From the IMG/VR virus record IMGVR_UViG_3300030035_000142, positions 1 to 27,280 of that record: a stretch of 27,280 nt of DNA; one strand, 5' to 3'. Position 1 is the first letter of the stretch. The number at the start of each line of letters is the position of its first letter. The stretch comes from a virus. The position numbers and the translations under genes are program-made. The notes under the pieces were generated by a model. That model searched no databases. It worked only from the letters and a program-made list of their open reading frames with translations, and was not told where the DNA came from. Below are positions 1,986-25,810 of the stretch, piece after piece.

Positions 1986-4130
1986 TTAAGCTGGTCCGTA
2001 GGGGTAGAAGGTGCCTCCGAAGACGGGTATCTGGATCATGCCCAGCGCGTACTGCGTCACCTGGTCGTCTTCGATGTCGGCTATCAGAAAGGAATAGTCG
2101 AAGTTGACACCCGGTTTTTCTTGGGCAAGCATGATAGGATAAACGGTCCCCGGTATGCCAGATACGTCCGCGCCCGTCAGTTTGGCGTCCTGGTCGAAGT
2201 GGACGTTGAGCCATACTTCCCCGCTGGTTTGGGGGATAGTCACCCACGAGGAACCGGAACCGCCCCCCTGCGGATATTTGCCGAGCAGCGAGCCGTTCAG
2301 ATAGAGCGCGCCGGGCTTCATCTGCGCCCCGGTGATGGCTCCCTCCGTATCTTTCTGCAAGCGCACCTGAAAGCCGTATTCCGGCGCGGGCGTGGATTCT
2401 CCCGTGGATTTGGTGATGTGCTGGCTGATGGTGGGGGATTCCGGCTTGGGGTCAAAGCCGTATTCCGTCGATTCCGGCGCCCCCTGCATGTTTTCCAGCG
2501 TGGAAGAAATGTTAGAAACGGAATTAATTTCATTGAGCGAAAGCAAATCTTCAACCCCAAGTTGATTTGGCGCGCCGTAGGACAGGGAAATCGCGTTGGT
2601 CTGCAGGTCGCGCGAAACGGTTTGAATCATGGTGTTGATGTTCTGCCACTCTGGGTTGCCTCCCAGCAGCGAGACGCGCCGGCCCATGTATTGCCGCGTC
2701 TGCGCTTCTCCCAGCGCGACAAAGGAAATAGAGCCGTCCCAGGGCAATTCCTGCATGGATTCCCATACCGTTTTGGCAATGTCCCCATAGGGCACTCCTT
2801 CCGACGGTTCCGGCGATTCCCCTTCTTCCGGGCCGTTGGAGGGCTGTTCCCCGTTGTAGATGCCGTCAATGGGGTAGCTCGCGTAGGGGCGGTCCATGGT
2901 GACCAGATCCACCGAGAATTCTTCCCAGAAGCAGGGCACGCCTTGCAGGGTCCCCACATTCTTGAATTTCTCCCTCCACTTGGCCGGGGCGCTTTCCGGG
3001 ATGGCAAGACGCTGCTTGACGGTGGCGTTGCACCATTGCGGGCGGATGGATTTGGTATGAATTTGCCCGTCCGTCAGTTCATAGCCTGTGGCGGCGGTGT
3101 TGTAGCCTCGCGGCTTGTCTTCCTCCGTTCCGTCCCAGGGCTTCCCGGTGATGGTCGGATCCTGGTCATAGACGGCGATTGCTCCTACATCTTTCATCCA
3201 CGGGAAATGATGTTTCCAGAAACTGTTGATCATGTCGTTCTGGTCAATCCTGGTCCCCGTCACTTTCATGCGCTGGTAAGACAGGCTGCCGGCCCTGGTG
3301 CCCTGCACCGGCTGCGGATCTTCTACCGGCTCCCCCGTAGAACTGTATTTGGAGTAGTAGAAGTCTACTGACGTTCGGTAAACAATGGAGTGCGGCAAGG
3401 TCGGGTCCCCGTCTTCCGGGTATTTGGACAGGTAGGAGACGCGGTAGCCGTTGCTGCCGGTGGTTTCCGCGACGATAGCCACGCAGGGCGGTACGAGGTC
3501 GCCCCGGGGGACCAGGGAAACATCCATAGACTTGACCGTCGCCGTCGGCTGCAAGGGAAGCGCGATGGGCGTCAGGGCGTCATAGTCCGTGATGATGAGC
3601 TTGGGGCGCGCGCCGCTGTAGTCGTAGTAGGAAACCATGCGGGGCGACCAGCGGCGGATGGATTGAAGGAGGCTGCTCAGCGTATCGCAGGAGGCGTTCC
3701 ACGGAATCAGCATCTTGTCGTCGCTGATACGCAGCTCGTAGTCCGCCGGGTGGTGTTTGGCGAGGTTCAGCACCCGGGAGAGTGCGGAGGCAATGCTTAT
3801 CTTGGGAATGATGCCGCCCCCTCCGCTGACTTTATTCCACATGGAAAAGACCGGCTTCCATTCGGAATCCAGCGCAAAGCAGTTGTCCAGCCAATACCAG
3901 GGATCGGAAAAGACGATTTTCCACGCACGGGAAGAGCCGCTGTAGGTCTTTTCGATGCTGGAAACGAGGCCGGAAAGAATGGTGTTCCCGTTTTGGGAGA
4001 TGGAGACAGTATCGAACTGTTGGAAGGGTAAGACCTCCCCCAGCGTTCGCACGGGATAAACCGCGGTGATGGCGGAGGAGGAAAAGCTTTGCTGGTCGTG
4101 GGTCAGGCTCGACGGCTTGAGGCCCAGCAA
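1986..4130 (-). CDS. Large distal tail protein (714 aa from TTG; possible AGG start at 4157)
   Basis: Long ORF directly downstream of the tape-measure region, with no recognisable enzymatic motif. The function call rests on position and size. The first canonical start is TTG 4130. The frame is open back to TAA 4181-4179 with an in-frame AGG at 4157-4155. Confidence 0.55.
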   Translation of the reverse strand: MLGLKPSSLTHDQQSFSSSAITAVYPVRTLGEVLPFQQFDTVSISQNGNTILSGLVSSIEKTYSGSSRAWKIVFSDPWYWLDNCFALDSEWKPVFSMWNKVSGGGGIIPKISIASALSRVLNLAKHHPADYELRISDDKMLIPWNASCDTLSSLLQSIRRWSPRMVSYYDYSGARPKLIITDYDALTPIALPLQPTATVKSMDVSLVPRGDLVPPCVAIVAETTGSNGYRVSYLSKYPEDGDPTLPHSIVYRTSVDFYYSKYSSTGEPVEDPQPVQGTRAGSLSYQRMKVTGTRIDQNDMINSFWKHHFPWMKDVGAIAVYDQDPTITGKPWDGTEEDKPRGYNTAATGYELTDGQIHTKSIRPQWCNATVKQRLAIPESAPAKWREKFKNVGTLQGVPCFWEEFSVDLVTMDRPYASYPIDGIYNGEQPSNGPEEGESPEPSEGVPYGDIAKTVWESMQELPWDGSISFVALGEAQTRQYMGRRVSLLGGNPEWQNINTMIQTVSRDLQTNAISLSYGAPNQLGVEDLLSLNEINSVSNISSTLENMQGAPESTEYGFDPKPESPTISQHITKSTGESTPAPEYGFQVRLQKDTEGAITGAQMKPGALYLNGSLLGKYPQGGGSGSSWVTIPQTSGEVWLNVHFDQDAKLTGADVSGIPGTVYPIMLAQEKPGVNFDYSFLIADIEDDQVTQYALGMIQIPVFGGTFYPYGPA

Positions 4131-4235
4131 GTCATTGATGGTGATGTCGTGGTTCCTGCTGCTTGTAAAATGGTTATGTTATGGCTTGATGTTACCGTAT
4201 CTTGCCTGGTTCGGCAATGCGTTTACCTGTCCTAG

Positions 4236-4643
4236 TTATTTATTTTTGCTTAATAGGACATAAAACGTATACCACATAATTCCACCAATTACCCCCCCGA
4301 CGATATAGCCTATTCCAGCCATAGATAAGCCTGATATAAAACTTGCTATTCCCATAATTGCTCCACCACCAACTGACAATGTTGCTAAGAATACGAGGAC
4401 TGTGGCAAGAGCAGAATGACTTTCTTTGCAAGTTGGAACCTTATTAGGGGAATGCATGATCCCACTATTTTCCCTCAATAATGAAGAAGAAAATAACAAT
4501 TCCGAAGCCTTGACCCATTTTTTTGTACCTTCTGCGCAAATTAACGTGTCGGGAGAAATTATGTTTCTCTCGACTAACCTTCTTAACTCGGTAAGAACAA
4601 TAGGTCCCTTCACAACATTTCCGGAAAAATAGTGATACCGCAT
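4236..4643 (-). CDS. GYF_2 (DUF4339)-like domain protein with a C-terminal transmembrane segment
   Basis: The N-terminus YHYFSGNVVKGPIVLTELRRLVERNIISPDTLICAEGTKKWVKASEL matches the GYF_2 pattern. The C-terminus is hydrophobic and Gly-rich (LATVLVFLATLSVGGGAIMGIASFISGLSMAGIGYIVGGVIGGIMWYTF). The gene lies in an AT-rich island. Confidence 0.6.
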   Translation of the reverse strand: MRYHYFSGNVVKGPIVLTELRRLVERNIISPDTLICAEGTKKWVKASELLFSSSLLRENSGIMHSPNKVPTCKESHSALATVLVFLATLSVGGGAIMGIASFISGLSMAGIGYIVGGVIGGIMWYTFYVLLSKNK

Positions 4644-4676
4644 AAATTTGGGAATTTACAATATCCTCATTTTTTT

Positions 4677-8362: not shown

Positions 8363-8893
8363 TTACTGGTTGAGGTAGTCTTTCACCCCTTCGGCAATGG
8401 CTTCGGCAATGCGTCCGGGATGGTCCTTCATCAGGGCGGCGTTTTCAGGATTGGTGATAAATCCGCATTCGCACAGCACCCACGGACAGCGGGTCCTTTT
8501 CAGGACGGCGAGGCCCGGACGCGACTGGACGGTATTGGCCCGGCCGGGAAGCAGGCGGGAAAGAGGTTCCGCAATGCACATGGCCAGCCTGCTGCCCTTG
8601 ACGCTGCCCGGGTAAAAACACACATGGGCCCCATGGGCCTGGGGATTGTCGGAAGCGTCGCAATGCAGTGAGATGCCGAAGTCATAGCCGCCTTCATTGG
8701 CGGCCTTGATGGTGGCGTTCAAATCCTGGGCATTGCTCATGCCCGGAAAGTCAATCACGTCCACCTTGGCCCCCAGCTGCCGCAGCATGGGGGCGAGGCA
8801 TTCGGCGATCGTCACGGCGACGGCGTGTTCTTCAAGACCGTTCCCGCGGGCTCCGGTGTTGTTGGCATGTCCAATATCAATGGCTATTTTCAT
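8363..8893 (-). CDS. N-acetylmuramoyl-L-alanine amidase (Amidase_3-type endolysin)
   Basis: MKIAIDIGHANNTGA...EH...SLHCDAS...AHGAHVCF...LCECGFITNPENA matches the Zn-amidase type 3 pattern (DxGHG.., SiHaNa, E.gFisN). Confidence 0.85.
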   Translation of the reverse strand: MKIAIDIGHANNTGARGNGLEEHAVAVTIAECLAPMLRQLGAKVDVIDFPGMSNAQDLNATIKAANEGGYDFGISLHCDASDNPQAHGAHVCFYPGSVKGSRLAMCIAEPLSRLLPGRANTVQSRPGLAVLKRTRCPWVLCECGFITNPENAALMKDHPGRIAEAIAEGVKDYLNQ

Positions 8894-8954: not shown

Positions 8955-10118
8955 TTAATTAAACCGTTGATGGACAAAGAGCTTTTCAATCGTTTTTTTT
9001 GCGTTATTATTTGCCGCAAAGTGGCACGTTTTCGCTTTCTCCCATATGGGAACGAAATCAGAAGGAGCTTTGTATTCTGAAATGAATACCGGAAAATCTC
9101 TCGTCCGGCACCACTCCCAAAAGCGATCATGGTTAAAAAGTCCGGACTTATATCTTTCCGTCCCCTCATAAGGAGGGTCGGCATAAACCACACTACCTTC
9201 CGGAATTGTTATTTCAGTATAATCTTTCCCGCTAATTGTTAATTTCTTATCCAAATAGACATCGCTTTCCAGGCTTTCCAATCTTTGCAGACGTTCCAAG
9301 CTTTCCAGGCTTTCCAGGCTTTCCAATCTTTCCAGGCGTTCCAGGCTTTGCAGATGTTGACCGTAATAATCAACGGGGTGCAAGGTTGGCAAAATCTCAC
9401 GCAGCTTTTCAAACTCTTCCCGTGTGGGGAATGCCCATTGGCTGGATCCAAAATAATGACCCGCCATTTGAGACCCCAAATGGCGGTTTACCTCCGCTTG
9501 AGTTTTCCCAGACGCTTTCAGCGCAGCGCGCAGCTCACCTCTGAGCCATTCTTCAATATTGTCAATCTGGTCCAAAATAGAAGACCTTTGTTCCTTCCTC
9601 CTTTTCAATTCAGCCCGTGCATCCCTTAAGCCCTGAATGAATTTTTTAAACCAGGCCAGACGGTCCTCTCTGTTTTCGGACATGATCATACGGAGCGCCG
9701 CCAACTTTACTGGCTCAAGGTCTGCGTTCCATAAATAACATTCACCGTGATTTCCAAATGACCATAAGAGGGCGACCGCCGCATCATGATCTTTCACGCG
9801 GTTGAACTCATCCCGATCAACAGCCCTCCGGTCACAATCTGTCAAACGCCCTGTTGCCGCACGAAAAAATAAATCAGGAAATTGCCGCTGAATATCATTG
9901 GCGATGACCCTGGGCCACTTCCCCGACCATAATGCCGCATGAGTCATGGCACACCCACCCGCGAAAAGATCAACAAATACCGGCCCTTCTGGTAAAATAT
10001 TCACCAGATCTGCGGCGATCTTATTTTTTGAGCCCATATAAGGCAATCCGAAACTGGCAGGTTTTTTTCTCGGAAGAGCGCATGGGGAGCTTAACCGTCT
10101 GGGATAAGAAGCAATCAC
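8955..10118 (-). CDS. N6-adenine DNA methyltransferase (Dam/D12-class-like) with an internal LES/LER repeat
   Basis: N-terminal LPYMGSKNKIA..., AdoMet motif VDLFAGGCAM and catalytic VYADPPY. The start is uncertain: GTG 10118 overlaps the upstream gene, and the ATG at codon 28 is an alternative. The gene is visibly more AT-rich than its flanks. Confidence 0.8.
   Translation of the reverse strand: MIASYPRRLSSPCALPRKKPASFGLPYMGSKNKIAADLVNILPEGPVFVDLFAGGCAMTHAALWSGKWPRVIANDIQRQFPDLFFRAATGRLTDCDRRAVDRDEFNRVKDHDAAVALLWSFGNHGECYLWNADLEPVKLAALRMIMSENREDRLAWFKKFIQGLRDARAELKRRKEQRSSILDQIDNIEEWLRGELRAALKASGKTQAEVNRHLGSQMAGHYFGSSQWAFPTREEFEKLREILPTLHPVDYYGQHLQSLERLERLESLESLESLERLQRLESLESDVYLDKKLTISGKDYTEITIPEGSVVYADPPYEGTERYKSGLFNHDRFWEWCRTRDFPVFISEYKAPSDFVPIWEKAKTCHFAANNNAKKTIEKLFVHQRFN
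9264..9353 (-). repeat. In-frame imperfect 9-nt tandem repeat array inside the Dam-like methyltransferase gene
   Basis: The + strand shows repeated GGCTTTCCA / AGCTTTCCA / ATCTTTCCA units. They encode LQSLERLERLESLESLESLERLQRLESLES. Confidence 0.85.
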
Positions 10119-10662: not shown

Positions 10663-11067
10663 TTATTTAATAGTGAAATGCTTGAAAAACGCCACCGCGG
10701 CGGGGGCGGTAATGACGAACTCCGGGTAGTCGCGGTCCGTAAAAATCCTGCGCCCGCCCTGTGGATTGACGGCTTCCACGGCCAGATACACCGCCTCCAC
10801 TCCCACAATGGGGTCATCCTCATTGACAGGATCCGGGTAATACCAATCCTGTGTTGCCCACACCTGGACGGCCTGCCAATCCTCACCCAATCCCACCAGC
10901 GCGGCCACTACGGCGGCCATGGCCGGGGTCTGGTTCGCCGGAATCTCGTCCTGCGTATAGCGGTCTATGCGGGTGTACCCTTCCTCGTCCTGGTAAATGG
11001 CCGCCAGGCCGAATTCATCCCATTGACCGGGTTTCGGGAACTGTATTTGTATCTCGGAATTATTCAT
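10663..11067 (-). CDS. Hypothetical acidic protein downstream of the fibre gene (fibre-assembly candidate by position only)
   Basis: 134-aa ORF. Its ATG overlaps the fibre stop (ATGA). No motif recognised. Confidence 0.45.
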
Positions 11068-13004
11068 GATTCTATCGGCACGTTAATATCTTCAAAAGCG
11101 GCGGTTGCCTCGGATTCAACGGCATTCGTTCCTATTGCGTTCAACCCGTAAAAGAGGGGGTTCACATTGCCCGGCTGGTAGTAGGCATATTCTCCGGGCC
11201 CCGCATAAACGGAAGCCGTGCCGCTGGTGGTGTTGATCACATCCGTCACCCACCTGGAAATGCCGACGCCGGTCTCAAAATTGGAGACGCCCCGGCAGGT
11301 GGCGATCTTGAACAGGTTGTTGGTCTGTGCCCCCGTGACCAGCAGCCAGAGGCCTCCCAGGTTTTCATAAACGCTGCTGTTGGCAACCGTCTGCTGCTGG
11401 TAAATAATCTTGCACACCGTCCACGGGACGGGCTCGTTTTGCGTCGCCGGGATAAAGCTGGTCGTCGTCTTGACCTGCCATCCATCGGCGGACGTCAGCG
11501 CATAAATTTCACGCACGCGCACCGTATAGCCGTTGCGCGCCGTATCGCGCACGTTGTCAAAGGTGATGTCCAGAATCTCCCCGGAATTAAATGCCAGGTC
11601 ATTGCCCGGAATAATCGTGTAGGAGTCGGTGGTAAGGTCTGTCCTGATTGTTTTCGCCCCCCGTCCGATGCCCATCGTTATCTTCGCCGCGGCCGTGGCC
11701 CGCCAGACAAATGAAAAGCCGGCCCAGGAAGAATAATTCCATTGGGAACTGGGGCCTTCAAAAGGGGCCTGAATAGTCGTGTGAGCGCCCGCGGAAATTC
11801 CTATGCGGGCCATCTGGTAGGGAACCGTTTTAGTCACCGTTGCCGTGCCGGTAGTTGTCAGCGTGTCCGTATTCAGGAAAGCCGCCGCCGTATAAGCATT
11901 GGCTGCGCCTCCCATGCCCGCGGCATACAGGCGGTTGACGCCGGATTCATTGGTCGGCGCTCCCACGGCCAGCGGGATGTTGACGCCTCCATTGGCGTTG
12001 ATGGCGCTTGAAAACGTGGATGTCCCCGCGCAGTTGAAGCTGGCGCCCTGGCTGATATTCAGGATTCCGGTCTCTACCATGAATGTCCCTCTCAGCCATC
12101 CGCCCGACCGAAGATCGACCGACTGGTAAAACCGGGTGATCCCGTAAATCTGGTTCAGCGTGCCGGCGCTTCCGCTGCCGTCCGGGTTGTTGACCACCAG
12201 AGGCCCGTTCACGGTAGCTGATTCGGCTGTCAGGGCTCCCCCGATATTCACATCGCCAACGTTGGATGTCAGAGTACCAGGATCTCCCTTTTCCCCTTGC
12301 GGCCCCTGGGGGCCTGCCGGACCTTCCGGCCCCTGGGGGCCCTCCGGGCCTTGAGGCCCCGCCGGTCCTGTATCTCCCTTCGGTCCCTGCTCCCCGGTTT
12401 CGCCCTGCGGCCCGCGTTCCCCGGTTTCGCCGCGTGGACCTTGCGGCCCTTCGGGTCCGGTTTCACCCCGTTCACCCTGCGGGCCTGACGGTCCCTGAGG
12501 ACCAACATCCCCGCGGGGAATCGTGAAATTGAGCAGATAGGATCCTGATTCAGTTCCCTTGACGGCTTCCGCGTTGGCGGGCGTCCCCGGTTCCCCGGTG
12601 GTGACCTGACCCACGGACAGATTAAAATTCTCGGCGTACTTTTTGGCCTGCTCCGCGTACCAGGCGGCGCTGGACGCGTTATCAAGCATGATTTGCACGC
12701 AGCCGCTTCCTTCCGGCAGCTGCACGACGACCGCGCCCGCCACGGCCTGCTGTTCGTCCGGCAAGTCCGGCGTCACCCGGCCCGAAGAAACAAAGCATCC
12801 GTAAAGGAACGGGCTTTCCTCGTTTCCGTCGTCCATGAAGACGTCATAGGACCACATGCCCGCAGGCACCGAAGCCCAGGAAATTACGCCATTGCCCTCG
12901 TCATCGCGTGAAAAGCCGAACTCCGTCACGCCCGTCTTGAGACGGACAGCGCCGCGCAGGGTGACGCCGCTCATATCGACGGGATCGCCCTGAAAATCCA
13001 CCAC
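11064..13004 (-). CDS. Collagen-like repeat tail fibre protein (646 aa from GTG; possible AGG start at 13070)
   Basis: About 26 uninterrupted G-X-Y triplets ([76 protein letters not shown]), flanked by a beta-rich N-domain and a ~400-aa C-terminal domain. Confidence 0.8.
12276..12512 (-). repeat. Collagen triple-helix (G-X-Y)n coding repeat
   Basis: Read directly from the translation of residues ~165-243 of the fibre ORF. Confidence 0.9.
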
Positions 13005-13072
13005 GCGGACGACCAGGGACTGGTTCAGCCCTGTGACGGTCCGGATATCGTATTTACCTGCCTGCTGCCTGG

Positions 13073-13118: not shown

Positions 13119-13730
13119 TCAGGAACCCGGCACCGGCGTCACGTCCTGCACATTGGAAGGCGTGAAATTGTAGTCGCCGCGGTAATCCATTTCGAACTCG
13201 AACTGGGGTGAAGCGATCGCCGTGGTGTGTTCGGGGTCCTGCAGGAGGCGCAAATCTCCGTGCGCCACGCCCGTCAAGTACACCGTCCCCACGTCGTTCT
13301 GATACCAGAAACGGATATGTCCGGAAATTTTATTATCCCCGCCATGGCCGACGGTGGTCGATTCCTCGCCGTTGGCGGGAGCCGCCCCCAGGGCAAACGC
13401 CAGCTGGAAGTATTCGGGCGACATATCCGGCGTGGTGAAAGTCATCCGCTTGCCGGTCGTCGTGTTCTTGCGCTGCTGCCGGTAGCCAAGATTGCCTCCG
13501 TAAAAGCGCGTCACTTCCCCCTCGACCTGCGTGGCAACGGACTGGAACGCGCCCAGCAGCCCGAAACTCACCCAAGGCGCTTCGGGCCCGGCTGTCGGAT
13601 CGGCCGGAGGATTGGCGGGAGGTTCGGGATATTGGCCGGGGCCGGTAACGTAAGAGGCTCCCTCGTCCTCGGTCACCTTGATGCCGTCGGGGAGGAAAAT
13701 AGCCAGAACGCCGGTAATCTGCGGCGTCAC
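13119..13730 (-). CDS. Putative major tail (tube) protein (203 aa from GTG; possible AGG start at 13769)
   Basis: The function call rests on size and position after the head-completion genes. The frame is open back to the upstream gene's TAA. AGG GCT ACT at 13769 would give MATTYDPIFTNRNV... Confidence 0.45.
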   Translation of the reverse strand: MTPQITGVLAIFLPDGIKVTEDEGASYVTGPGQYPEPPANPPADPTAGPEAPWVSFGLLGAFQSVATQVEGEVTRFYGGNLGYRQQRKNTTTGKRMTFTTPDMSPEYFQLAFALGAAPANGEESTTVGHGGDNKISGHIRFWYQNDVGTVYLTGVAHGDLRLLQDPEHTTAIASPQFEFEMDYRGDYNFTPSNVQDVTPVPGS

Positions 13731-13784
13731 GTTGCGGTTGGTAAAGATAGGATCGTATGTAGTAGCCCTGATGCTTGAAAAAAG

Positions 13785-17036: not shown

Positions 17037-17777
17037 TTAATCGGCGGAGGCCGTCGCGTCGATGCGGACGATGGCGCCGGGGTTGGTCAGCTTGGTCAGC
17101 GAGTAGACGCGGTTGGTGACGAGCGTCAAGGCCAGCGTCGGCTTGTATTCGGTGATGACTTCGCGGCGAAGCTGGCCGGAAAGACCGAAGGTTTTGACGG
17201 CGGAGGCGTCGAACTGCGTCGGGGAATCTTCCTTGTACAGGACATAGACTTCGTTTTCCATGATGGTTTTCGCGTCGCCGGAAGCGTCGCGGTACGGCAT
17301 GGAGGCGATGTAAATATCCCGGATGGGCCGGATCAGAGCCATGCGAAGCAGGTCTTCGTTGAACAGGCCGACGCTGTTGAAGGAAACCACCTGGCGCGCG
17401 AGCGTGTTGGAGCGAAGCAGCTGCCACGCGTTGATGCCGAAGACAATCGTGTTCGGCATGTGTCCGGTTGCGGCGTTGATGGACAGGATCGCCTGGTCCA
17501 GATCCGCCAACGGGTTTTTCTGCTGGTTGGCCCAGTCACCCATCCCGGAAGCGGCCGGAAGCTGGCTCATCAGAAGCTTGGCGCGTTCGTATTCGTACGA
17601 CGTCACAAACTGGGATTCGATGAGTTTGTATTCCGCCAGGGTGATGGCCTGCGCCTTTTCCCGGTTGACGCCCAGCAAGGCGTCAGGGATGGGCAGCGTC
17701 AAGCCGTAGCCCTGAAGGGTGTCGGTTTCGTTTCTTCCGCGCAGGACGGTCTGGCGGGGAGGTTCGCCCGGTCCCAC
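17037..17777 (-). CDS. Major capsid protein, lambda gpE-like (coordinates from the first canonical GTG; true N-terminus probably at AGG 17963)
   Basis: PLADLDQAILSINAATGHMPNTIVFGINAWQLLRSN parallels lambda gpE PTDDIEAYALNASGVVNIIVFDPKGWALFRSF. At 246 aa it is too short for this family. The frame is open for 72 more codons upstream, and these read like capsid N-terminus. Confidence 0.75.
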   Translation of the reverse strand: MGPGEPPRQTVLRGRNETDTLQGYGLTLPIPDALLGVNREKAQAITLAEYKLIESQFVTSYEYERAKLLMSQLPAASGMGDWANQQKNPLADLDQAILSINAATGHMPNTIVFGINAWQLLRSNTLARQVVSFNSVGLFNEDLLRMALIRPIRDIYIASMPYRDASGDAKTIMENEVYVLYKEDSPTQFDASAVKTFGLSGQLRREVITEYKPTLALTLVTNRVYSLTKLTNPGAIVRIDATASAD

Positions 17778-17997
17778 CTGGATGGGCTGGACGGTGAAGG
17801 CCGATTCCGTGTCCCAGACCTTGTACTGGAAATTCAGGTCATAGACCGGGACGATCGGAGCGATGCGGCTGATGATGGAGTTCTCTTCTGTGTTCCCGGA
17901 CCCCGCGGAATAGGAGGTCAGGACATCGGTGAACTGAACGGCGGAGCAAAATGGAGTAGCCCTTGTTCTTGGTCTTTCTGTTGGTTGGGGTTAATAG

Positions 17998-18447: not shown

Positions 18448-19569
18448 TTATCGGTTGGCGGAGACGATGAAGCCTTCTTCGGTCGCTTTCTGGTAGGCGT
18501 CATAGCGCTTCATGCCGTCCTTGATCAGTTCGTTCACACGGTTGTTGAATCCTTCAATGGATTCCTTCTTGCGGAACGGATCAGGGGGATTCAGCGTCAC
18601 GCGGCGGTTCAGAGGCGTCCTTTGCGGAAGCTTCTTCTGCTCCGGCTGCTCCTGTTTCTGTGGGGCCGCCTGGCGGTTGAGCGCACGGATAAAGGCGTTC
18701 AGCGCGGCGGGGCTTTCCCGGAGAGAGTTTTTCAGCTCTTCCCGGCGTTCTTCCGTAAATTCCTCGCGTTCTTCCTCGTCCAGCGCGTTTTCGTACGTGC
18801 TGACGGCGTCGTCCACTTCGGCGTTCACGTGGTCTTTCTCGCGCTTTTCCAGCGAGAGCAGTTCATCAAGTCGTCCGAGGATCGCCCTGCTCATATCGTC
18901 GGTGCCGTCAAATTCGACATCCAGCTTGTCAAGCAGGGAATCGAACAGGGCCCGCTGGGCCTTGTCCATTTCCTTGGACGGATATTCTCTATCGTCGTTG
19001 TCCATATTGGTGTTCTGGGTTATTTCCCCCTCTTCGCGGGGCTTTTGTGGTTTGGTGTCGCCCCCGGCCTCGTCGGAGGCGGGGGAAGTCTGTCGGTTGA
19101 CCAGCGGCCGCTTTCCCTTGATGCGGGGTCGGTTGGTCAGGGCAAAGCCGGTCAGGCGCGACGGTCGGTAAACGCCGTCCGTAAAGGTCATGCCTTCGCC
19201 GTATTCCGTAGAAGATTGCGTATATTCTTTGTCCTCGAGCATCTTCAGGCCGCGGGGAGTCCATTCAATGAAGCCGTAGAGTTCCAGCGTACCGGAAGGG
19301 TCTCGGTAGGTGTCCAGCCTCTTGAGCCATCCGAGAGCCCGCGTATCGCGGGAAAGGTCGTGGCTCAGGTGGTCGCCGTCGATGAGCATGCCCGGCCCGT
19401 CAAAGGTGCGGGCGTTGAAGTCGTCCACCATGTCCCGGATCGCCTGCTCGTCGATGCGCAGCACGGCGGGTCCTTCACCGTAGTCGACGTCATGGTCTCC
19501 GCTTTTCTCGATGTGATACCAGCCGTTGGCGGGTCGGGACAGGTCATTGATTTGTTTCGTACTGATCAT
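18448..19569 (-). CDS. Mu gpI-like prohead protease / scaffold fusion
   Basis: The N-domain GDHLSHDLSRDTRALGWLKRLD...LELYGFIEWTPRGLKMLEDKEYTQSSTEY...RLTGFALTNRPRIKG matches the Mu-like prophage I protein pattern. The C-terminal half is an acidic coiled coil (scaffold-like). Confidence 0.7.
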   Translation of the reverse strand: MISTKQINDLSRPANGWYHIEKSGDHDVDYGEGPAVLRIDEQAIRDMVDDFNARTFDGPGMLIDGDHLSHDLSRDTRALGWLKRLDTYRDPSGTLELYGFIEWTPRGLKMLEDKEYTQSSTEYGEGMTFTDGVYRPSRLTGFALTNRPRIKGKRPLVNRQTSPASDEAGGDTKPQKPREEGEITQNTNMDNDDREYPSKEMDKAQRALFDSLLDKLDVEFDGTDDMSRAILGRLDELLSLEKREKDHVNAEVDDAVSTYENALDEEEREEFTEERREELKNSLRESPAALNAFIRALNRQAAPQKQEQPEQKKLPQRTPLNRRVTLNPPDPFRKKESIEGFNNRVNELIKDGMKRYDAYQKATEEGFIVSANR

Positions 19570-20680
19570 CGGTAAATCCTTTCATGAGTCCGGCGTAAAT
19601 CATTTGCTGAAGCTGCTCGTAGGCGTCGGGCGGAATGAGGGAGGCTCCCGACTCCCTGTTGACTGCCGCCGCCGTCGGCACAGGCTCCCTCGTGTCCTCG
19701 ATCGACATGCCGATCTTTTCTTCGATTTCGGTTTTCTCCGGACGGACGCCTCCGTCCGCAAGGGCGGCGATTTCCTCGGCCTTCTGCAATGGCGTCTGGA
19801 CGGTGTCAAAGGTGATGTGGAGGCGGGCCAGCGGTTCGCCGTCTCCCAATATAAGCGGGCTGATGGCGGTGTTGAACGCTTCCGCCACTTTGGAGCAGAC
19901 GGCGGATACCACCGCATTCCAGCTGTCCGTATGGGCGGACCCGGCCAGCGTGCCTGATCCTGATTCGTTCAGGACCGTCAGGGTTCCGGCCATCACAAAA
20001 CGCACCTGGTCCTTGTCGGCCATGTTGATGCGCGAGAGAAAATAGTTTTCGTTGATGTTGGACGCCTTGAGCGGTTCCGCCTTGCAGTCAGGAGGCAGCA
20101 CGATAGAGGCGCCTGATTTAAGCTGTTCGCAGGCCCGTTCCAGCGCGTCCATGACGGCGGGACTCGCGTCCTTGGGGGCGGTGATGATGACCGGGGCGCT
20201 TCCGTAGCGGTCCATGTGGTTGTCCCACGTGATTTTTGCGTGGTTGCGCTCAAAAGAAGCGCGGGCAGCCGGGAACAGGATGGGATACTGGTGTTCCATC
20301 ACGACGAGCGTTTCGTCTTCCACGCTTTCCCCGGTGTCGACGCCGATATAGCACTGTGGGTTGAACTGCCACTCGTTCAACACTCCCGGCCTCACCCAAT
20401 AGCGCTGTGGGATGAATTCAAAGCGGCGGCCCCAGGCGTCCTCAATGTATTGGAGGTGGGCGTAACCGTAGAACATGGCGGAGGCCAGCTGCCCAAAGGC
20501 CTGTTGAAGTCCGGTGACGGAGTGATAGAATTCTTCCAGCGCGTTCTGCTGACGCTGGGCTTCCGGGCTGTCGTCCGCGGCGTCAATCTTCCAGCCCTGC
20601 ATGGAGACGCTTTCAATGAGGCGGGAGTAGAGCATTCCCAGCAGCCCGTCCGAGTAGATGACCTCGTCCCAGATGAGCAT
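19544..20680 (-). CDS. Portal protein, Mu gp29 / DUF935-like (coordinates from the first ATG; true N-terminus probably at AGG 20908)
   Basis: 378 aa from the ATG is short for this family. The conserved block ...ADLQTLIDARNEARRGAFARQ|MLIWDEVIYSDGLLGMLYSRL spans the ATG. The frame is open upstream to within the tRNA gene and has no ATG/GTG/TTG. Confidence 0.8.
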   Translation of the reverse strand: MLIWDEVIYSDGLLGMLYSRLIESVSMQGWKIDAADDSPEAQRQQNALEEFYHSVTGLQQAFGQLASAMFYGYAHLQYIEDAWGRRFEFIPQRYWVRPGVLNEWQFNPQCYIGVDTGESVEDETLVVMEHQYPILFPAARASFERNHAKITWDNHMDRYGSAPVIITAPKDASPAVMDALERACEQLKSGASIVLPPDCKAEPLKASNINENYFLSRINMADKDQVRFVMAGTLTVLNESGSGTLAGSAHTDSWNAVVSAVCSKVAEAFNTAISPLILGDGEPLARLHITFDTVQTPLQKAEEIAALADGGVRPEKTEIEEKIGMSIEDTREPVPTAAAVNRESGASLIPPDAYEQLQQMIYAGLMKGFTDDQYETNQ

Positions 20681-20928
20681 TTGGCGGGCAAAGGCTCCCC
20701 GCCGCGCTTCGTTCCGGGCGTCAATCAGGGTTTGCAGGTCGGCTCCCTGTAACGGATCCCAATATTCGAACCATTGGGGCCTGCCTGGCTTGCGGCTTTG
20801 TTCCGTCAGGGCTCGCCGGGTGAGATCCGTTTCAAGTTCCTTGATTCTGGTCTCCTGTTGGGCGACCAGCTTCGGGGCGTTGAGGATATTTCTTAATGCG
20901 TTAAACCTGCGGCGAAAGAAAAAAATGG

Positions 20929-21002
20929 TGGTTGCAGGGGGGGGAATTGGACCCCCTACTCGGGCACAGGAAACCCGCGTGATAACGTTTCACCACCCTG
21001 CG
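20929..21002 (-). tRNA. tRNA, anticodon CCU (AGG-reading), with an initiator-like acceptor stem and a non-canonical D/T loop
   Basis: Manual cloverleaf: CGCAGGG UG GUGA-AACGUUA-UCAC G CGGGU-UUCCUGU-GCCCG AGUA GGGGG-UCCAAUU-CCCCC CCCUGCA A CCA. All stems pair (one U.G), U33 is present, position 37 is a purine and CCA is encoded. Position 1:72 is a C x A mismatch. Confidence 0.6.
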
Positions 21003-21018
21003 ATTGTTTACATATCGT

Positions 21019-21047
21019 CATATATTGATATATTGATATATTGTCAA
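21019..21047 (-). promoter_or_regulatory. Near-consensus sigma70-type promoter directly upstream of the tRNA
   Basis: The minus strand reads TTGACA (21047-21042), a 17-nt spacer, then TATATG (21024-21019), about 17 nt before tRNA position 1. It starts 2 nt after the terL stop codon. Confidence 0.4.
21021..21044. repeat. 3 x 8-nt tandem repeat TATATTGA / TATATTGA / TATATTGT
   Basis: Read directly from the + strand. It fills the spacer and -10 region of the putative tRNA promoter. Confidence 0.85.
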
Positions 21048-21049
21048 CC

Positions 21050-22357
21050 CTAATATCTCCCGTAAGCGCGTTTTGATGACACGGGCCGGGCGTACCAGGC
21101 TCCCAGCGTCCGGGCCAGTCCGCTGTGCCGGCGCGCGTGCCAGGCCATGACGAGGGCGTCGGCGCGGTCGGGAGAACGGACGCCCCGTTTCGCCATGTCT
21201 TCCTTGCTTTCGATTTTGACGCGGCCGATCGCGTCGGTTTGGAGCCGGGGCGCTACCAGCTGCTCAATCGTGTCCTCGTCAATGTCGAGGATGAGTTCCT
21301 TTTCTTCGATGGCTCGGGCCAGGGCCCGCCACGCCTGGGCGCGGAGGTTGACAAAGGCCTGCGTATCGTCTGCCGGGAAACCGCCCCGGTAGGAGTGCAC
21401 CGGGAAGCCCTCGGCGCGGAAGTCGTCAATGATGGGTAGTCCAAGGCCGTCTCCGTCCGCGTAAATGCGGTCGGCGGGGATGCCGAGTTCGGACGCCCTG
21501 CGGCGGAACCGTCCGCGCGCTCCTACGGTGTCCGGGTCCGACCAGTGGTCGGCGATGAAGAATCGGTTGCCCTGCCCGGCCGCGAAGACGTTTTCGTCGC
21601 CTCCGGCCGCGAAGTCGAAGCCGCCGCAGGTCTCCCCGGTGTCCAGAAAGGGAGGCGGGTTGTTGACCAGATCCATGAGGGCGCGCCGGGGAATGACGGA
21701 CTGACCGTCGAGGTCCGTGAATTCGCCGAGGATGGCGGAGCGGTAGAAGGAGGACTGCTCGCCGTATTCTTTTTTCAGGCGCTCGGCCTTGCCCGGGTCA
21801 TTGATCTCAATGTGGGGGCAATCCTCGTATTTGACGCGGATCTTGTAGTAGAGGGATGAATTTTTGTGGAAGCAGTCGTAGAAGGTGCCGGAATCGGCCC
21901 CAGGTGACGAGGTAATGAACGCGTGGAAGAGCGTGCAGCGGGAAACGGCGGTGAAGATGGAGTCCGGGATGGTTTTAGCCTCGTCGAGGACGTAAAAGAC
22001 GGGGTCCACGTCGGGCGAGATTTTCGGGTGCCATCCTTCCGCGCGGCCGGCGTTGTCGGTCGAGAAGCCCACGGCAAAGCCTCCCTCCGGCGTGCGAATC
22101 TCGGTTTTGTTGAATGTCCAGCCGTCAAAGAAAGGGTTGTCCATGTAGCGGCGGAGCGCGGGAAAGAGCTGCTTTTCCACCTGCATCCACGACGACGACG
22201 TAACCGGCACCTGACCCCGCGGGAAGCAGGTAAGGAAGTACAGGATGGCCGGAGCGATGCAGTTGCTCGTCTTGCCGGATCCGTTGGGAGCAACCAGAGC
22301 CACGCTTTTCCCTCCCAGGGTCAGCTTGCCGAGGGACAACGCCTTGATGGCTTCCAC
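21050..22357 (-). CDS. terL: Terminase large subunit (coordinates from the first canonical GTG; true N-terminus probably at AGG 22423)
   Basis: Walker A VAPNGSGKT, Walker B-like FYVLDEAK and a C-terminal nuclease-type acidic motif (SPDRADALVMA). The typical TerL N-terminal block FFLRHVLRLDPYPWQ lies upstream of the GTG. Confidence 0.9.
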   Translation of the reverse strand: MEAIKALSLGKLTLGGKSVALVAPNGSGKTSNCIAPAILYFLTCFPRGQVPVTSSSWMQVEKQLFPALRRYMDNPFFDGWTFNKTEIRTPEGGFAVGFSTDNAGRAEGWHPKISPDVDPVFYVLDEAKTIPDSIFTAVSRCTLFHAFITSSPGADSGTFYDCFHKNSSLYYKIRVKYEDCPHIEINDPGKAERLKKEYGEQSSFYRSAILGEFTDLDGQSVIPRRALMDLVNNPPPFLDTGETCGGFDFAAGGDENVFAAGQGNRFFIADHWSDPDTVGARGRFRRRASELGIPADRIYADGDGLGLPIIDDFRAEGFPVHSYRGGFPADDTQAFVNLRAQAWRALARAIEEKELILDIDEDTIEQLVAPRLQTDAIGRVKIESKEDMAKRGVRSPDRADALVMAWHARRHSGLARTLGAWYARPVSSKRAYGRY

Positions 22358-22429
22358 CTGCCAGGGATAGGGATCCAGGCGGAGGACATGGCGGAGGAAG
22401 AAGCTGACGGGGAGGCGTGTCCTGGTCTG

Positions 22430-23019: not shown

Positions 23020-23089
23020 GATCTTGTTGATGGGAGGTAAGGGACCAACCGGAGACACAATCCAAAACCAAACCAGAAAGACTAAAACA

Positions 23090-23347
23090 ATGAACGCTGA
23101 TAAAACTTACAAAATCCGAGAAATATTCACCTTTCACCGCCATGAAATAGCTATTGCCGGAGAAGTGGTGAAAAACTATGACGAAGAAGGAAGAACCTAT
23201 AATTTTTATTGCCCGGTGCGGGAAGTCCACGGCGTAAGGCATGGATTTGTCAGCGGCAATGTTCCGGAAGAAGTAAAAGACTTTGTTGATGTGAGAGACA
23301 TCCTTGAAAAAGCGGAAGAATACGATGTGGTTGTAGATTGGGACTAA
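23090..23347 (+). CDS. Small acidic hypothetical protein (85 aa)
   Basis: I start at ATG 23090, preceded by the A-rich leader AACCAAACCAGAAAGACTAAAACA. The upstream TTG-initiated extension is hydrophobic and junk-like. AT-rich gene. Confidence 0.55.
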   Translation: MNADKTYKIREIFTFHRHEIAIAGEVVKNYDEEGRTYNFYCPVREVHGVRHGFVSGNVPEEVKDFVDVRDILEKAEEYDVVVDWD

Positions 23348-23376
23348 AATAAAACCAAATCAGAAAGAACAAGACA

Positions 23377-23745
23377 ATGACTAAAAACGAATTAACAGAA
23401 ATTCTCAAACTGCACGAAATGTGGCTGAACGAGGAAGAAGGCGGCGCTCAGGCCAAATTTGAAGACCTCGACCTCAGGGGGCTCGACTTTAGGGGTGCTA
23501 ACTTAATCAAGGCTGACTTTAAGGACGCCGACTGTTCCGGAGTTGATTTCACAGGGGCCGACTTGAGATGTGCCGATTTCACCGGGGCCAATCTAACCGG
23601 GACCGATTTCTCCGGGTGCAATCTGAAATGGGCCAATTTTTACAAGGCCAATCTAACCGGAGCCAGATTTAACGGGGCTATCCTGGAATGCGCCGACTTT
23701 AGATGGGCCCGCGGGATTGTCGATCTGACCGTAGGGAAAGCTTAA
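23377..23745 (+). CDS. Pentapeptide-repeat protein
   Basis: About 18 consecutive A(D/N)LXX-type pentapeptides (DLRGLDFRGANLIKADFKDADCSGVDFTGADLRCADFTGANLTGTDFSGCNLKWANFYKANLTGARFNGAILECADF). Confidence 0.85.
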   Translation: MTKNELTEILKLHEMWLNEEEGGAQAKFEDLDLRGLDFRGANLIKADFKDADCSGVDFTGADLRCADFTGANLTGTDFSGCNLKWANFYKANLTGARFNGAILECADFRWARGIVDLTVGKA

Positions 23746-23760
23746 ACACAAACCAAACAC

Positions 23761-24069
23761 ATGAAAAAATATATTATCCCTCAAAAGTTTAGAGATACGT
23801 CTTTATCAGATATCTCCTCTACCAAGTATGACCGCATCATTGAATTTCCGGAAGGTCACAAATTTGCGGTTGTCCTGGCTGCGTACTACATCAAAGATGT
23901 CAACGAAGAACCATGCTATTATACCTACCAAACACAAGACGAAGCGCTCAATGCAATAGCAAAATACTGGAATGATTATTGCTACGAAGTAATTGACGAC
24001 GAAGGTTATCAGCGTTGGGATATCATGAGATGTGGCCCTGTTGGGAGGCGATTTGAGCAAATCAAATAA
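23761..24069 (+). CDS. Small acidic hypothetical protein (102 aa)
   Basis: ATG with the A-rich leader AAACACAAACCAAACAC. No motif recognised. Confidence 0.55.
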   Translation: MKKYIIPQKFRDTSLSDISSTKYDRIIEFPEGHKFAVVLAAYYIKDVNEEPCYYTYQTQDEALNAIAKYWNDYCYEVIDDEGYQRWDIMRCGPVGRRFEQIK

Positions 24070-24083
24070 TCGGAAGCTCAAAT

Positions 24084-24284
24084 ATGAATCCTCAAGAATT
24101 TGTTGATTGGGTCCAGTCCAGATACCATTTGCGATCCAAAACTTCTGCGGTCAAAAAGGCTGCGCAGATGTTGCGGGTGACAGAAATGGCTGTATGGCAA
24201 TGGTTGGGCGGGTCCAGAAAAACGAGTCCGTCGATGGAGCTGTTGATGGAGCTAATCACCCGTCACGGATTGCCGGACGAATAG
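24084..24284 (+). CDS. Small HTH DNA-binding protein (Cro/YdaS/Aca-like)
   Basis: 66 aa. VKKAAQMLRVTEMAVWQWLGG fits a helix-turn-helix of the '..lgVs..avsqW..g' type. It is the last gene of the plus-strand operon. Confidence 0.55.
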   Translation: MNPQEFVDWVQSRYHLRSKTSAVKKAAQMLRVTEMAVWQWLGGSRKTSPSMELLMELITRHGLPDE

Positions 24285-24287
24285 ACC

Positions 24288-24321
24288 TATACGAGATTCC
24301 AGGGTATACGAGATTCCAGGG
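24288..24321. repeat. Exact 2 x 17-nt tandem repeat TATACGAGATTCCAGGG
   Basis: Read directly from the sequence. It fills nearly the whole 37-nt gap between the convergent stop codons at 24282-24284 (+) and 24322-24324 (-). Confidence 0.9.
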
Positions 24322-25062
24322 CTATTCCCGGGGATGGTAATTGATCTCGCGGTAGGATTTCCAATCACAGGTGATGATGGTGCCGCAAAGGTGGATGCGG
24401 GAAACAATGGCCGGCCCGAGTCGATCTTCAAGGGCGGCGGGGCTGTAGTTGGAGATGATGATGGTCGGTTTGCCGTTCTGGTGCCGATAATCAATGAGCC
24501 TTTCCAGCGCGGCGCCTGCAAAGTCCGTGTCCTTGACCTCGTGATACTCGTCCAGCACCAGAAGATACGGGGCCTTGTATCGCTTCATGACATCGGATTC
24601 CGAGCCGTTGCCGTTAAACGTCTCTCTCAAGTCCATCGTGTAATCATAGGCCTTGGTATAGAGAACTCGCCTCTTTCGCCTGTACATGAGGCGTCCAAGA
24701 AACGTGCTCAATACCGTTTTCCCGGTGCCGTATCGCCCGTTCAGTACAATGATACTCCCAGGCGTCAAAACGAGGCGGTAGGCATCACGCAGGGCTTTCT
24801 TCCATGGTTCCCCGGTTACTTCGTCAAGGCAATCAATAGCTCGGCGGGGAAAACCGCGGTCAATCAGGCCAAGGCGTTCGTATGCCGCTCGGCGTTCTTC
24901 TTCCCGCTGCTTTTCAGCATCCAGCGCTTCCGCTTCCAGCTCTTCAATGCTTCTTCCGTCGTCCTCGGCAAGCAGGGTGATAGATTCCAGGAGGCTTTCA
25001 AGATTAACTTCTTTCAGTCCTCCCTGGGGTTTAATGGGGTCGTCAATCTTTCCAGAGGTCAT
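24322..25062 (-). CDS. DnaC/IstB-like AAA+ helicase loader
   Basis: Walker A LNGRYGTGKT and Walker B YLLVLDEYHE. ATG 25062 is preferred because it limits the overlap with the upstream gene to 20 nt. ATG 25110 is possible. Confidence 0.75.
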   Translation of the reverse strand: MTSGKIDDPIKPQGGLKEVNLESLLESITLLAEDDGRSIEELEAEALDAEKQREEERRAAYERLGLIDRGFPRRAIDCLDEVTGEPWKKALRDAYRLVLTPGSIIVLNGRYGTGKTVLSTFLGRLMYRRKRRVLYTKAYDYTMDLRETFNGNGSESDVMKRYKAPYLLVLDEYHEVKDTDFAGAALERLIDYRHQNGKPTIIISNYSPAALEDRLGPAIVSRIHLCGTIITCDWKSYREINYHPRE

Positions 25063-25810
25063 CTCGTCTTGATGGTTTAGTCGTTGATTTTGTCGGGGAT
25101 TCCGCGGCATTGGCGGGTTTCAGCCCGGGCGGGTTCGCATTGTTCCGGGCCCAGGTGGCAGCGTATTGGCGAGCCATGGGCCGCCAGTCTGCCAGGGGGA
25201 CGCCGTGCCGGTTTCGCCATCCAACGGCGGACTGCTCGTTGAAAAACCGTTCCGCGCACCGGGTCAGCTCGTCTCCGATTGGGTGCAGAACCTGGGCGGC
25301 CATAAAACGGTCAACCTCGGAAACATCCTTCGGAAATTGGCAGACCTCGCGCCCGGTTGTAGTTGTAGTAGTAGTAGTATCTTCTCTTCTCTTCTCTGGT
25401 AACGGTTTTTGTAACGGTTCAAGCGTTACATTTTCGTTACATGTTTTTACAACTCGCTCATGATGAGCTTTTCTGCTATTCGCAACACGGCGGTTCGTAT
25501 TGGCCCTATTTTTGGCGGATTGGCCGTTGTGGCGGTCAAAATTGGGGATTGAAAGGAGGCCCTCGCGTCCATTCAACCAGCCAACTTTGACAAGCCCAGC
25601 GGCGAAGCCGGGGCAGAATACAAGACGGTCGAGAAACGAATTTGTAACGGTAATGGCGTTACCAGAAACGGATTGTTGATCAGCCCAAATCCAGAGGCGA
25701 AGCAGCTTGCCGACAACGGCATCCTGATCAATTCCAAGGATGCCGGCCAGCTTCACCACTTCGGGTTTGTCAGGTGTGGTGTGTTCAACCTTGATCCAGT
25801 CTCCGGCCAT
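25043..25810 (-). CDS. Phage replication organiser/initiator-like protein
   Basis: I start at ATG 25810 (MAGDWIKVEHTTPDKPEVVKLAGILGIDQDAVVGKLLRLWIWADQQS), a typical N-terminal winged-helix-type domain of phage replication proteins. It lies upstream of a DnaC-like loader and contains a T8 tract. Confidence 0.55.
   Translation of the reverse strand: MAGDWIKVEHTTPDKPEVVKLAGILGIDQDAVVGKLLRLWIWADQQSVSGNAITVTNSFLDRLVFCPGFAAGLVKVGWLNGREGLLSIPNFDRHNGQSAKNRANTNRRVANSRKAHHERVVKTCNENVTLEPLQKPLPEKRREDTTTTTTTTGREVCQFPKDVSEVDRFMAAQVLHPIGDELTRCAERFFNEQSAVGWRNRHGVPLADWRPMARQYAATWARNNANPPGLKPANAAESPTKSTTKPSRRDDLWKD

Follow-up and report, generated by a model that had tools for sequence, protein, structure and literature searches.

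The DNA analysed in this work, referred to below as the window, is the whole 27,280-nucleotide stretch of the IMG/VR virus record IMGVR_UViG_3300030035_000142. Its late region holds genes for packaging, head, tail and lysis proteins, several of which have an AGG codon in the place where a start codon would be expected, and a tRNA gene with the anticodon CCU, located between the gene for the large terminase subunit (terL) and the portal gene. The case began with the major capsid gene, which comes after the portal gene, a Mu-like protease/scaffold gene and the gene of a 143-amino-acid protein.

The capsid gene lies on the minus strand, in a frame that runs open from 17990, immediately past the TAA at 17993-17991, to the stop at 17037. 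The first ATG, GTG or TTG in it is GTG 17777, at codon index 71, and a scan of the frame bore out the original prediction, made from the sequence of the window, that the frame is open from this GTG up to TAA 17993 without any of these three codons. The tenth codon of the open frame is AGG 17963, which is the sole AGG in the entire capsid open reading frame (ORF), and the peptide following it in the translation is ATPFCSAVQF...QPIQ. The peptide and the three leader sequences quoted in the original prediction are exact.

The region between AGG and GTG was examined at the protein level. The AGG-initiated product matches PHROG 1005, 'major head protein' (E 4e-18), with residues 13-263 aligned to profile positions 14-273 of 315, so that the protein is co-linear with this family from its first residues. 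A database search gave 48 capsid relatives, which are Akkermansia muciniphila proteins wherever a name is given, and in the alignment Met1 of the full-length homologues P0001, P0006 and P0048 lies exactly opposite AGG 17963. When the window was compared with three diverged relatives, substitutions in the extension fell on codon positions 1/2/3 in the numbers 10/11/30, 10/10/39 and 11/9/36, and this third-position bias is what a coding region under purifying selection shows. The profile match, the alignment with homologues and the substitution pattern thus identify the 62-codon upstream stretch as real N-terminal capsid sequence, as had been proposed when it was called capsid-like; that proposal was to stand or fall with the conservation of the region as protein, and the region is conserved.

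Comparison with the Phage_cap_E family (PF03864), also suggested at the outset, gave a divided answer. A 70%-identical homologue from the related locus L009 passes the cut-off (24.8 bits vs 22.9), with residues 142-284 aligned to profile positions 160-303 of 329, which fits a capsid of about 308 residues and not one of 246, whereas the window protein had no Pfam match, Phage_cap_E included, even at E 10. The likeness to the lambda gpE-type HK97-fold major capsid proteins (PF03864, PHROG 1005) is seen in the PHROG match and in the homologue, the window protein itself being below Pfam significance. The best match of a PDB profile search with the capsid reached only E 0.05 (3bjq, 'phage-related protein'), and an AlphaFold2 model built on a 10-sequence alignment had a mean predicted local distance difference test score (pLDDT) of 40.9, too poor for judging the HK97 fold.

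Two other ways of entering the capsid frame were ruled out. Read-through or frameshifting from the upstream gene would have to deal with different frames and with TAA 17993, which closes the capsid frame, and the related locus L001 has an independent ATG there. As for a start at the near-cognate CTG, capsid codon 15, L001 has CTC there, and the shortened protein would lose invariant residues.

The capsid gene is not alone. A scan of all long frames found an in-frame AGG ahead of any canonical start in five further late genes (Table 1), so that six genes of the window use AGG and the original prediction, which argued from one, had understated the case. To place these codons, related loci (designated L) were drawn from Logan, ENA, JGI, IMG/VR, GTDB and GenBank, and the codon aligned to each AGG was compared; two of these loci, L001 and L002, lack the tRNA. 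In terL, AGG is found in all tRNA-bearing loci except L012 and L055, with ATG one codon downstream, and the tRNA-less L001 has ATG two codons upstream of the aligned AGG. The two codons that follow vary (acacgc, aatcat, ccatac, aaccat, ccctac), and AGG is constant wherever it is used. The portal AGG is present in all tRNA-bearing loci. It was at first doubted, Portal_Mu beginning at residue 79, next to ATG 20680, and was reinstated by the alignment with TTG in L001 and by the coding pattern of the 76-codon extension, where substitutions by codon position were 13/4/37. The 216-residue tail-module gene starting at 13769 opens with AGG GCT ACT, as the capsid gene does, and its downstream GTG, codon 14 in the window, is GTA in L009 and L012. 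The fibre gene has collagen triple-helix repeats (Pfam PF01391) at residues 211-266. In the gene of the 723-residue protein, the stretch from the in-frame stop to AGG 4157 contains no canonical start; this AGG is kept behind four unrelated upstream contexts, and synonymous changes begin at codon 2.

A seventh position is provided by the endolysin gene, which has ATG in the window. Its start codon is AGG in 15 loci and ATG in 10, always at the same distance behind the same AAAGGAGAA Shine-Dalgarno sequence, and ATG in the tRNA-less L001 and L002. Position 1 of the Pfam Amidase_3 profile corresponds to endolysin residue 3, and with the constant Shine-Dalgarno distance this means that the AGG must be the first codon of the enzyme. 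Furthermore, the extension from AGG to the first canonical codon showed third-position substitution bias in every gene tested. Genes of the early region use ATG, and the AGG starts are found in terL, portal, capsid, tail genes and endolysin. Inside the late genes AGG is rare, accounting for none of the 16 arginine codons of the capsid gene, none of the 8 in gene 13769 and one of the 37 in terL, which argues against a demand for tRNA(CCU) in elongation. Three further AGGs were considered as starts and rejected: AGG 20782 and AGG 10883 are internal or belong to a spurious ORF, and AGG 2016, a candidate for a seventh start in the window, was ruled out as the next gene starts at ATG 1977.

Table 1. 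Features of the window discussed in the text, with coordinates, strand and the evidence for each.
Feature	Position	Strand	Evidence
74-nucleotide tRNA gene, anticodon CCU, initiator-type acceptor stem, encoded CCA end	20929..21002	-	ARAGORN; Rfam tRNA 47.4 bits; sequence and fold
AGG at the start position of the capsid gene	17961..17963	-	Opposite ATG in L001-L003 and L012 and opposite Met1 in P0001, P0006, P0048; AGG in all other related loci
Capsid codons between AGG and GTG 17777 (n=61)	17778..17960	-	PHROG 1005 alignment, homologue alignment, third-position substitution bias
Major capsid protein coding sequence, 308 codons from AGG	17037..17963	-	Profile and homologue matches
Terminase large subunit coding sequence, AGG 22423, six bases after the terS stop	21050..22423	-	PHROG 2 match, residues 16-435
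Portal coding sequence, AGG 20908	19544..20908	-	Portal_Mu Pfam match; TTG at the aligned codon in L001, L002
216-residue tail-module protein coding sequence, AGG 13769	13119..13769	-	ATG at the aligned codon in L001, L002; AGG in all tRNA-bearing loci
Collagen-repeat, tail-fibre-like coding sequence, AGG 13070	11064..13070	-	Pfam Collagen and PHROG tail-fibre matches; ATG at the aligned codon in L001, L002; AGG in all tRNA-bearing loci
723-residue protein coding sequence, AGG 4157	1986..4157	-	AGG in 26/26 IMG/VR loci
Amidase_3 endolysin coding sequence, ATG in the window	8363..8893	-	Same codon AGG in 15 related loci
Capsid leader CCCCAACCAACAGAAAGACCAAGAACA with Shine-Dalgarno-like AGAAAGA (17979-17973)	17964..17990	-	AAAG-N10-start spacing as at the endolysin AAAGGAG site
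ATG-initiated leader AACCAAACCAGAAAGACTAAAACA, then ATG	23066..23092	+	Sequence
ATG-initiated leader AACCAAATCAGAAAGAACAAGACA, then ATG, pentapeptide-repeat protein gene	23353..23379	+	Sequence
TTGACA (21047-21042), then 8-bp periodic repeats ATATATCA ATATATCA ATATATGA CGATATGT	21010..21047	-	Sequence; Tandem Repeats Finder, period 8, 3 copies

The original prediction had hinted at a tRNA, and the only one that ARAGORN finds in the window gives the hint its substance: its anticodon, CCU, is the exact complement of AGG, and its acceptor stem is of the initiator type. The sequence is CGCAGGG-TG-GTGA-AACGTTA-TCAC-G-CGGGT-TTCCTGT-GCCCG-AGTA-GGGGG-TCCAATT-CCCCC-CCCTGCA-ACCA, which gives an acceptor stem of C1xA72, G2:C71, C3:G70, A4:U69, G5:C68, G6:C67 and G7:C66 followed by A73, and an anticodon stem of C27-G43, G28-C42, G29-C41, G30-C40 and U31.G39. 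The 1:72 position was also flagged as a non-pair in the Rfam match. An unpaired 1:72 is the hallmark of bacterial initiator tRNAs, and in E. coli it is the main determinant for formylation, for exclusion from EF-Tu and for resistance to peptidyl-tRNA hydrolase; G2:C71, C3:G70 and A73 are determinants for the formyltransferase.

Sixteen distinct sequences of this tRNA were collected from the related loci and counted against the cloverleaf. All 20 of its 20 pairs are fully paired across the variants, and compensatory double changes are seen in eight of them, including 4:69 (A:U to G:C) and 7:66 (G:C to A:U). Against this background C1xA72 is found in 16/16 variants, and since the mismatch has been kept while neighbouring pairs covary, it is a selected feature. 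The CCU anticodon, C3:G70 and A73 are likewise invariant (16/16 each), and G2:C71 is present in 15, the remaining one having G2:U71. Compared with E. coli tRNAfMet, a single pair is different in the 7-bp acceptor stem of the window tRNA. The run G29-G31:C39-C41 of bacterial initiators is complete in 12/16 variants, with G30:C40 in all of them. The phage tRNA differs from bacterial tRNAfMet in being encoded by a phage, in having CCU instead of CAU, U11:A24 instead of A11:U24, a D-loop of 7 nucleotides and, mostly, C55, and in presumably not being charged by methionyl-tRNA synthetase (MetRS). Furthermore, AGG, the codon it would read, is no near-cognate of AUG at position 1 or 3. When IMG/VR was scanned with a pattern of the 5' half of the tRNA, matches were obtained only in this phage family and always with CCU, and a narrow scan for anticodon arms of the E. 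coli/Bacillus initiator type with a changed first or second anticodon base gave no matches. An origin of the tRNA as a remnant of an attachment (att) site was ruled out, because 20 kb separate it from the integrase (1-1188) and because all loci have it inside the late operon.

The tRNA and the AGG starts occur together in relatives. The tRNA(CCU) stands at the terL-portal junction in 51/51 of the fetched junction-spanning loci that have AGG starts, a count that overstates independence because close relatives are numerous among them. L001 and L002, which also cover this junction, are without the tRNA and use canonical starts in all the genes compared: the aligned codon is ATG or TTG for capsid, portal and the genes starting at 13769 and 13070, and in terL the start is found within two codons. 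The capsid gene of L003 also has ATG at the codon aligned with AGG. L012 and L055 are intermediate: they carry the tRNA and start capsid and terL with ATG, the remaining three genes with AGG. Throughout about 50 loci the AGG is invariant, and the flanking codons and leaders are variable. The family is diverse, with capsid lineages only 67-72% identical and the 16 tRNA sequences mentioned above. Among the GTDB representative genomes there was one match, in a metagenome-assembled genome of A. muciniphila, and GenBank holds CP084202.1, a separate 31.9-kb phage molecule from the host A. muciniphila NBRC 114322 with the same tRNA and AGG at six genes. The CP084202.1 record carries no annotation. 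Annotation errors are systematic in the database entries of the family: portals are called with 378-484 residues, one call starting inside the tRNA, endolysins with 141-158 residues and without the catalytic N-terminus, and gaps of 220-320 nucleotides are left unannotated.

This distribution bears on the idea that ATG codons were inactivated by mutation to AGG as the prophage decayed, or that the AGGs are errors of sequencing or assembly. Such a change takes a single transversion, and the element is an integrated one, with its integrase at 1-1188. However, the same AGGs are found in more than 50 independent assemblies (Logan, ENA, JGI, IMG/VR, GenBank), in lineages only about 70% identical in capsid protein, with all ORFs intact and with the substitution patterns of purifying selection. 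Six simultaneous changes that hit the exact start codon and never any other place are unlike decay, and one member of the family has been deposited as a separate phage molecule (CP084202.1). Inducible A. muciniphila prophages with purified virions have in addition been documented, although they have not been linked to this family (PMC8008629). We find decay or error hardly credible as an explanation.

Together, the initiator-type tRNA, the presence of AGG at seven start positions defined by alignment and the co-occurrence of the two make it very likely, as far as can be judged from sequence comparison, that the phage-encoded initiator tRNA(CCU) decodes AGG as the start codon of late genes. It is also likely that we are dealing with a natural orthogonal initiation system, which would have a dedicated non-CAU initiator and would have replaced AUG by AGG as the start codon of packaging, head, tail and lysis genes, and whose proteins may begin with a residue other than N-formylmethionine (fMet).

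A more conventional explanation is that the tRNA is an ordinary elongator tRNA-Arg(CCU), serving codon supplementation or the evasion of tRNA-targeting defences, and that the genes start downstream, or weakly at AGG with the host tRNAfMet. Phage elongator tRNAs are common, ARAGORN and Rfam label this one only as tRNA or tRNA-Arg, and gene callers do find downstream GTG or ATG codons. Many database entries of the capsid are accordingly 246 or 278 residues long, these being truncated gene calls on DNA with the same AGG problem. The anticodon is indeed shared with elongator tRNA-Arg(CCU), but the phage tRNA is without its A20 and its paired 1:72, which elongators need for the ternary complex with EF-Tu, and C1xA72 is kept in every variant while its neighbours covary. 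Internal AGG is rare in the late genes. The downstream starts are not conserved, as the GTG of gene 13769 illustrates, and their use would remove the N-terminus of Amidase_3 with its DIGH motif and invariant residues of the capsid. An elongator would also leave unexplained why AGG alone occupies seven start positions and why AGG starts are missing where the tRNA is absent. Some initiation at AGG by the host is conceivable, as native initiators give trace initiation at many codons, AGG included (bioRxiv 10.64898/2026.04.16.719103). Taking both sides, we consider an elongator role very improbable.

For the putative phage initiator tRNA(CCU) a sequence of steps can be proposed. A temperate A. muciniphila phage would carry a second, private initiator tRNA with CCU in place of CAU. 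This tRNA would be aminoacylated, the likeliest charging enzyme being arginyl-tRNA synthetase (ArgRS) through C35 and U36, though A20 is missing; methionine would also be possible. By analogy with the initiator biology of E. coli, the host methionyl-tRNA formyltransferase would formylate the charged tRNA by means of the 1x72 mismatch, 2:71 and 3:70, the mismatch would keep the tRNA off EF-Tu, IF2 would carry it to the P site of the 30S subunit, and the fully cognate CCU:AGG duplex, together with the G:C pairs of the anticodon stem, would pass IF3 proofreading. Packaging, head, tail and often lysis proteins would then be translated only when the phage tRNA is present, and internal AGG would presumably continue to be read as arginine. 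Possible benefits, all of them conjectural, are that packaging and lysis genes would be tightly silenced in lysogens, that exploitation or recombination would be hindered, and that defences targeted at tRNAfMet would be evaded; a neutral ratchet is another conjecture.

The amino acid carried is a separate question. The phage initiator could deliver methionine, through relaxed recognition by MetRS or a modified anticodon, in which case the proteins would start with fMet and only the codon would be reassigned. The acceptor stem nearly identical to that of E. coli tRNAfMet and the absence of A20, the main identity element for ArgRS in E. coli, are in keeping with this (the 7-nucleotide D-loop, AACGKTA, gives U20 under our inferred numbering), and methionine is the best substrate for formylation. 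On the other hand, recognition by MetRS depends mainly on CAU, and in E. coli it suffers strongly when A35 is replaced by C35. Pfam and PHROG scans of the window found no encoded synthetase or modification enzyme. Moreover, initiators with mutated anticodons are generally charged according to the new anticodon (bioRxiv 10.64898/2026.04.16.719103). Delivery of methionine is thus, in our opinion, unlikely.

Initiation at AGG by a CCU initiator has a precedent in the laboratory. When 12 non-canonical pairs were compared in six strains, CCU with AGG, on an engineered E. coli initiator, came out best, with a 35- to 402-fold induction, and in one strain the pair exceeded AUG (bioRxiv 10.64898/2026.04.16.719103). 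Because this pair works, the mechanism proposed for the phage is physically plausible, also on a scaffold which, like the engineered one, has U20.

Several features weigh against the initiator interpretation. In the anticodon stem, the third G:C pair is U31.G39 in the window tRNA and in variant v02, and the first is A29:U41 in v03 and v04; natural initiators with two G:C pairs in this stem do exist. The D-stem has U11:A24 in 16/16 variants instead of A11:U24, a secondary initiator feature in E. coli. Position 55 of the T-loop is C in most variants (TCCAAYT), the usual TTCAAYT being found in L012, L030 and L036; U55 is near-universal in tRNAs, and C55 is unusual for any of them. A basic amino acid such as arginine is perhaps a poor substrate for formylation, as lysine is for the E. 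coli formyltransferase. Finally, the TTGACA element upstream of the tRNA was not called by a strict sigma-70 consensus scan, which leaves the timing of expression discussed below a conjecture. Position 19 of the D-loop is also variable (G, T, C or A), and the elbow contacts of the phage tRNA appear relaxed.

To our knowledge, every natural initiator tRNA described so far has the anticodon CAU, and non-AUG starts are near-cognates read by this CAU initiator. A search of the full-text literature, thin in its coverage of subscription journals, found no natural initiator tRNA with a non-CAU anticodon, only engineered anticodon mutants, and no report on the tRNA or the start codons of these Akkermansia phages. 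Start-codon reassignment of this kind would be new in nature, although engineering has anticipated the mechanism. Orthogonal initiators engineered in E. coli (amber CUA, i-tRNA-AAC, i-tRNA-CCU/AGG; see also PMC11744186) share with the phage system the changed initiator anticodon and the complementary codon in the start slot. They were built in the laboratory on the scaffold of E. coli tRNAfMet, whereas the phage system would be natural and evolved, is conserved across a phage family and is tied to defined late genes.

Two natural phenomena resemble what is seen here. The first, which is the closest natural analogue, is the recoding of stop codons with suppressor tRNAs by crAss-like, Lak and other gut phages, where a phage-borne tRNA also gives one codon a new meaning and such codons are likewise concentrated in late structural and lysis genes, so that these need the phage's own tRNA for their translation. 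In that case, however, an EF-Tu-dependent suppressor reads a stop as a sense codon in the course of elongation, whereas here an initiator-type tRNA would read a sense codon as a start during initiation; all ORFs of the window are closed by standard stop codons, and the reassigned AGG is a sense codon at position 1 only. The second is the use of non-canonical starts (GUG, UUG, CUG, AUU as in infC, AUC, AUA), in which a non-AUG triplet likewise occupies the start slot behind a normal ribosome-binding site. These near-cognates deviate from AUG at position 1 or 3 and are read without an additional tRNA, whereas the mismatch of AGG is at position 2, and AGG has reportedly served as a negative 'non-start' reporter in E. 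coli studies of IF3.

If true, the interpretation offered here would provide the first natural exception to the rule of the CAU-anticodon initiator in translation of the cellular type, and a new class of genetic-code deviation, the reassignment of a start codon. One small RNA would act as a translational master switch for late genes, in parallel with stop-codon recoding but at the level of initiation. Synthetic biology would gain an orthogonal initiator/start pair optimised by evolution, the same pair that engineers found to be best in E. coli. The interpretation would also reveal a blind spot of annotation, where genes are truncated or missed, capsids of 246 and 278 residues being present in hundreds of NCBI, ENA and Logan entries and the tRNA being labelled tRNA-Arg. 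The AGG system is directly testable, since its host A. muciniphila can be cultured, is of medical importance and is known to have inducible prophages, which are not linked to this phage family so far (PMC8008629).

The leader of the capsid gene was the starting point of the original prediction, which placed AGG in the start-codon slot of a leader recurring in the phage. The start slot has stood, as the alignment with Met1 indicates; the shared leader proved to be incidental and did not hold as a signature of the system. It has the form CAGAAAGA-N9-AGG at 17980-17961 and CAGAAAGA-N8-ATG at 23090 and 23377. The window contains four copies of CAGAAAGA vs 0.85 expected, a number reached in 4/100 shuffles, and three of the four lie 8-9 nucleotides ahead of a start slot. 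The other five genes with AGG starts are without it and their leaders differ, and CAGAAAGA is therefore not a defining signature of AGG initiation. It is consistent with a Shine-Dalgarno-like element, with AAAG 10 nucleotides before AGG as in the endolysin site. This AAAG may pair with a 16S rRNA tail of the CCUCCUUUCU type, as assumed for Akkermansia. The two plus-strand leaders belong to the 23090-25080 module, which is divergent, has a lower GC content (0.44) and consists of small genes, including that of the pentapeptide-repeat protein (23377-23745); two of its genes share the capsid-type AACCAAAYCAGAAAGA leader.

The base preceding AGG is C in six of the seven gene families with AGG starts and A in the capsid gene. 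A C at -1 is complementary to G37 of the tRNA, and a CAGG:CCUG quadruplet would be possible. Pairing between nucleotide 37 and position -1 has been shown for E. coli tRNAfMet (PMC10018350). Phages whose tRNA has A37 keep the C at -1, a base that is found there in about half of the ATG genes as well, and we regard G37:C(-1) pairing as a weak proposal.

Directly upstream of the tRNA, between it and the terL stop codon, lies the element of TTGACA and 8-bp repeats, conserved with variation in L004, L009 and L012, and the 3' end of the tRNA is 20 nucleotides ahead of portal AGG 20908. TTGACA and the repeats may constitute a promoter plus operator for the tRNA and the portal-capsid block. If so, the tRNA would be made at the head of the very transcript whose genes need AGG initiation, which is a conjecture.

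Other observations concern the neighbourhood of the AGG-start genes. A GC-rich hairpin with a T-run, which looks like an intrinsic terminator, lies immediately upstream of AGG 13070. The viral contig IMGVR_UViG_2850266918_000004 (L099, L109), 55 kb long, carries two copies of the 723-residue AGG-start gene about 24 kb apart, which suggests tandem or polylysogenic prophages of the family. A block of low GC content at 4236-6524 (0.35-0.41 vs about 0.59 elsewhere) holds a 615-residue gene with 25 AGA codons among CGC/CGG-rich neighbours, and looks like a recently acquired tail-fibre or receptor-binding module. Two ORFs on the minus strand resemble DNA methyltransferases: one at 8955-10118, with PHROG 56 matches and a GC content of 0.48, lies in the late region, flanked by the tail genes and the endolysin, and the other, at 26342-27253, has a Pfam DNA_methylase match and lies at the right end of the window.

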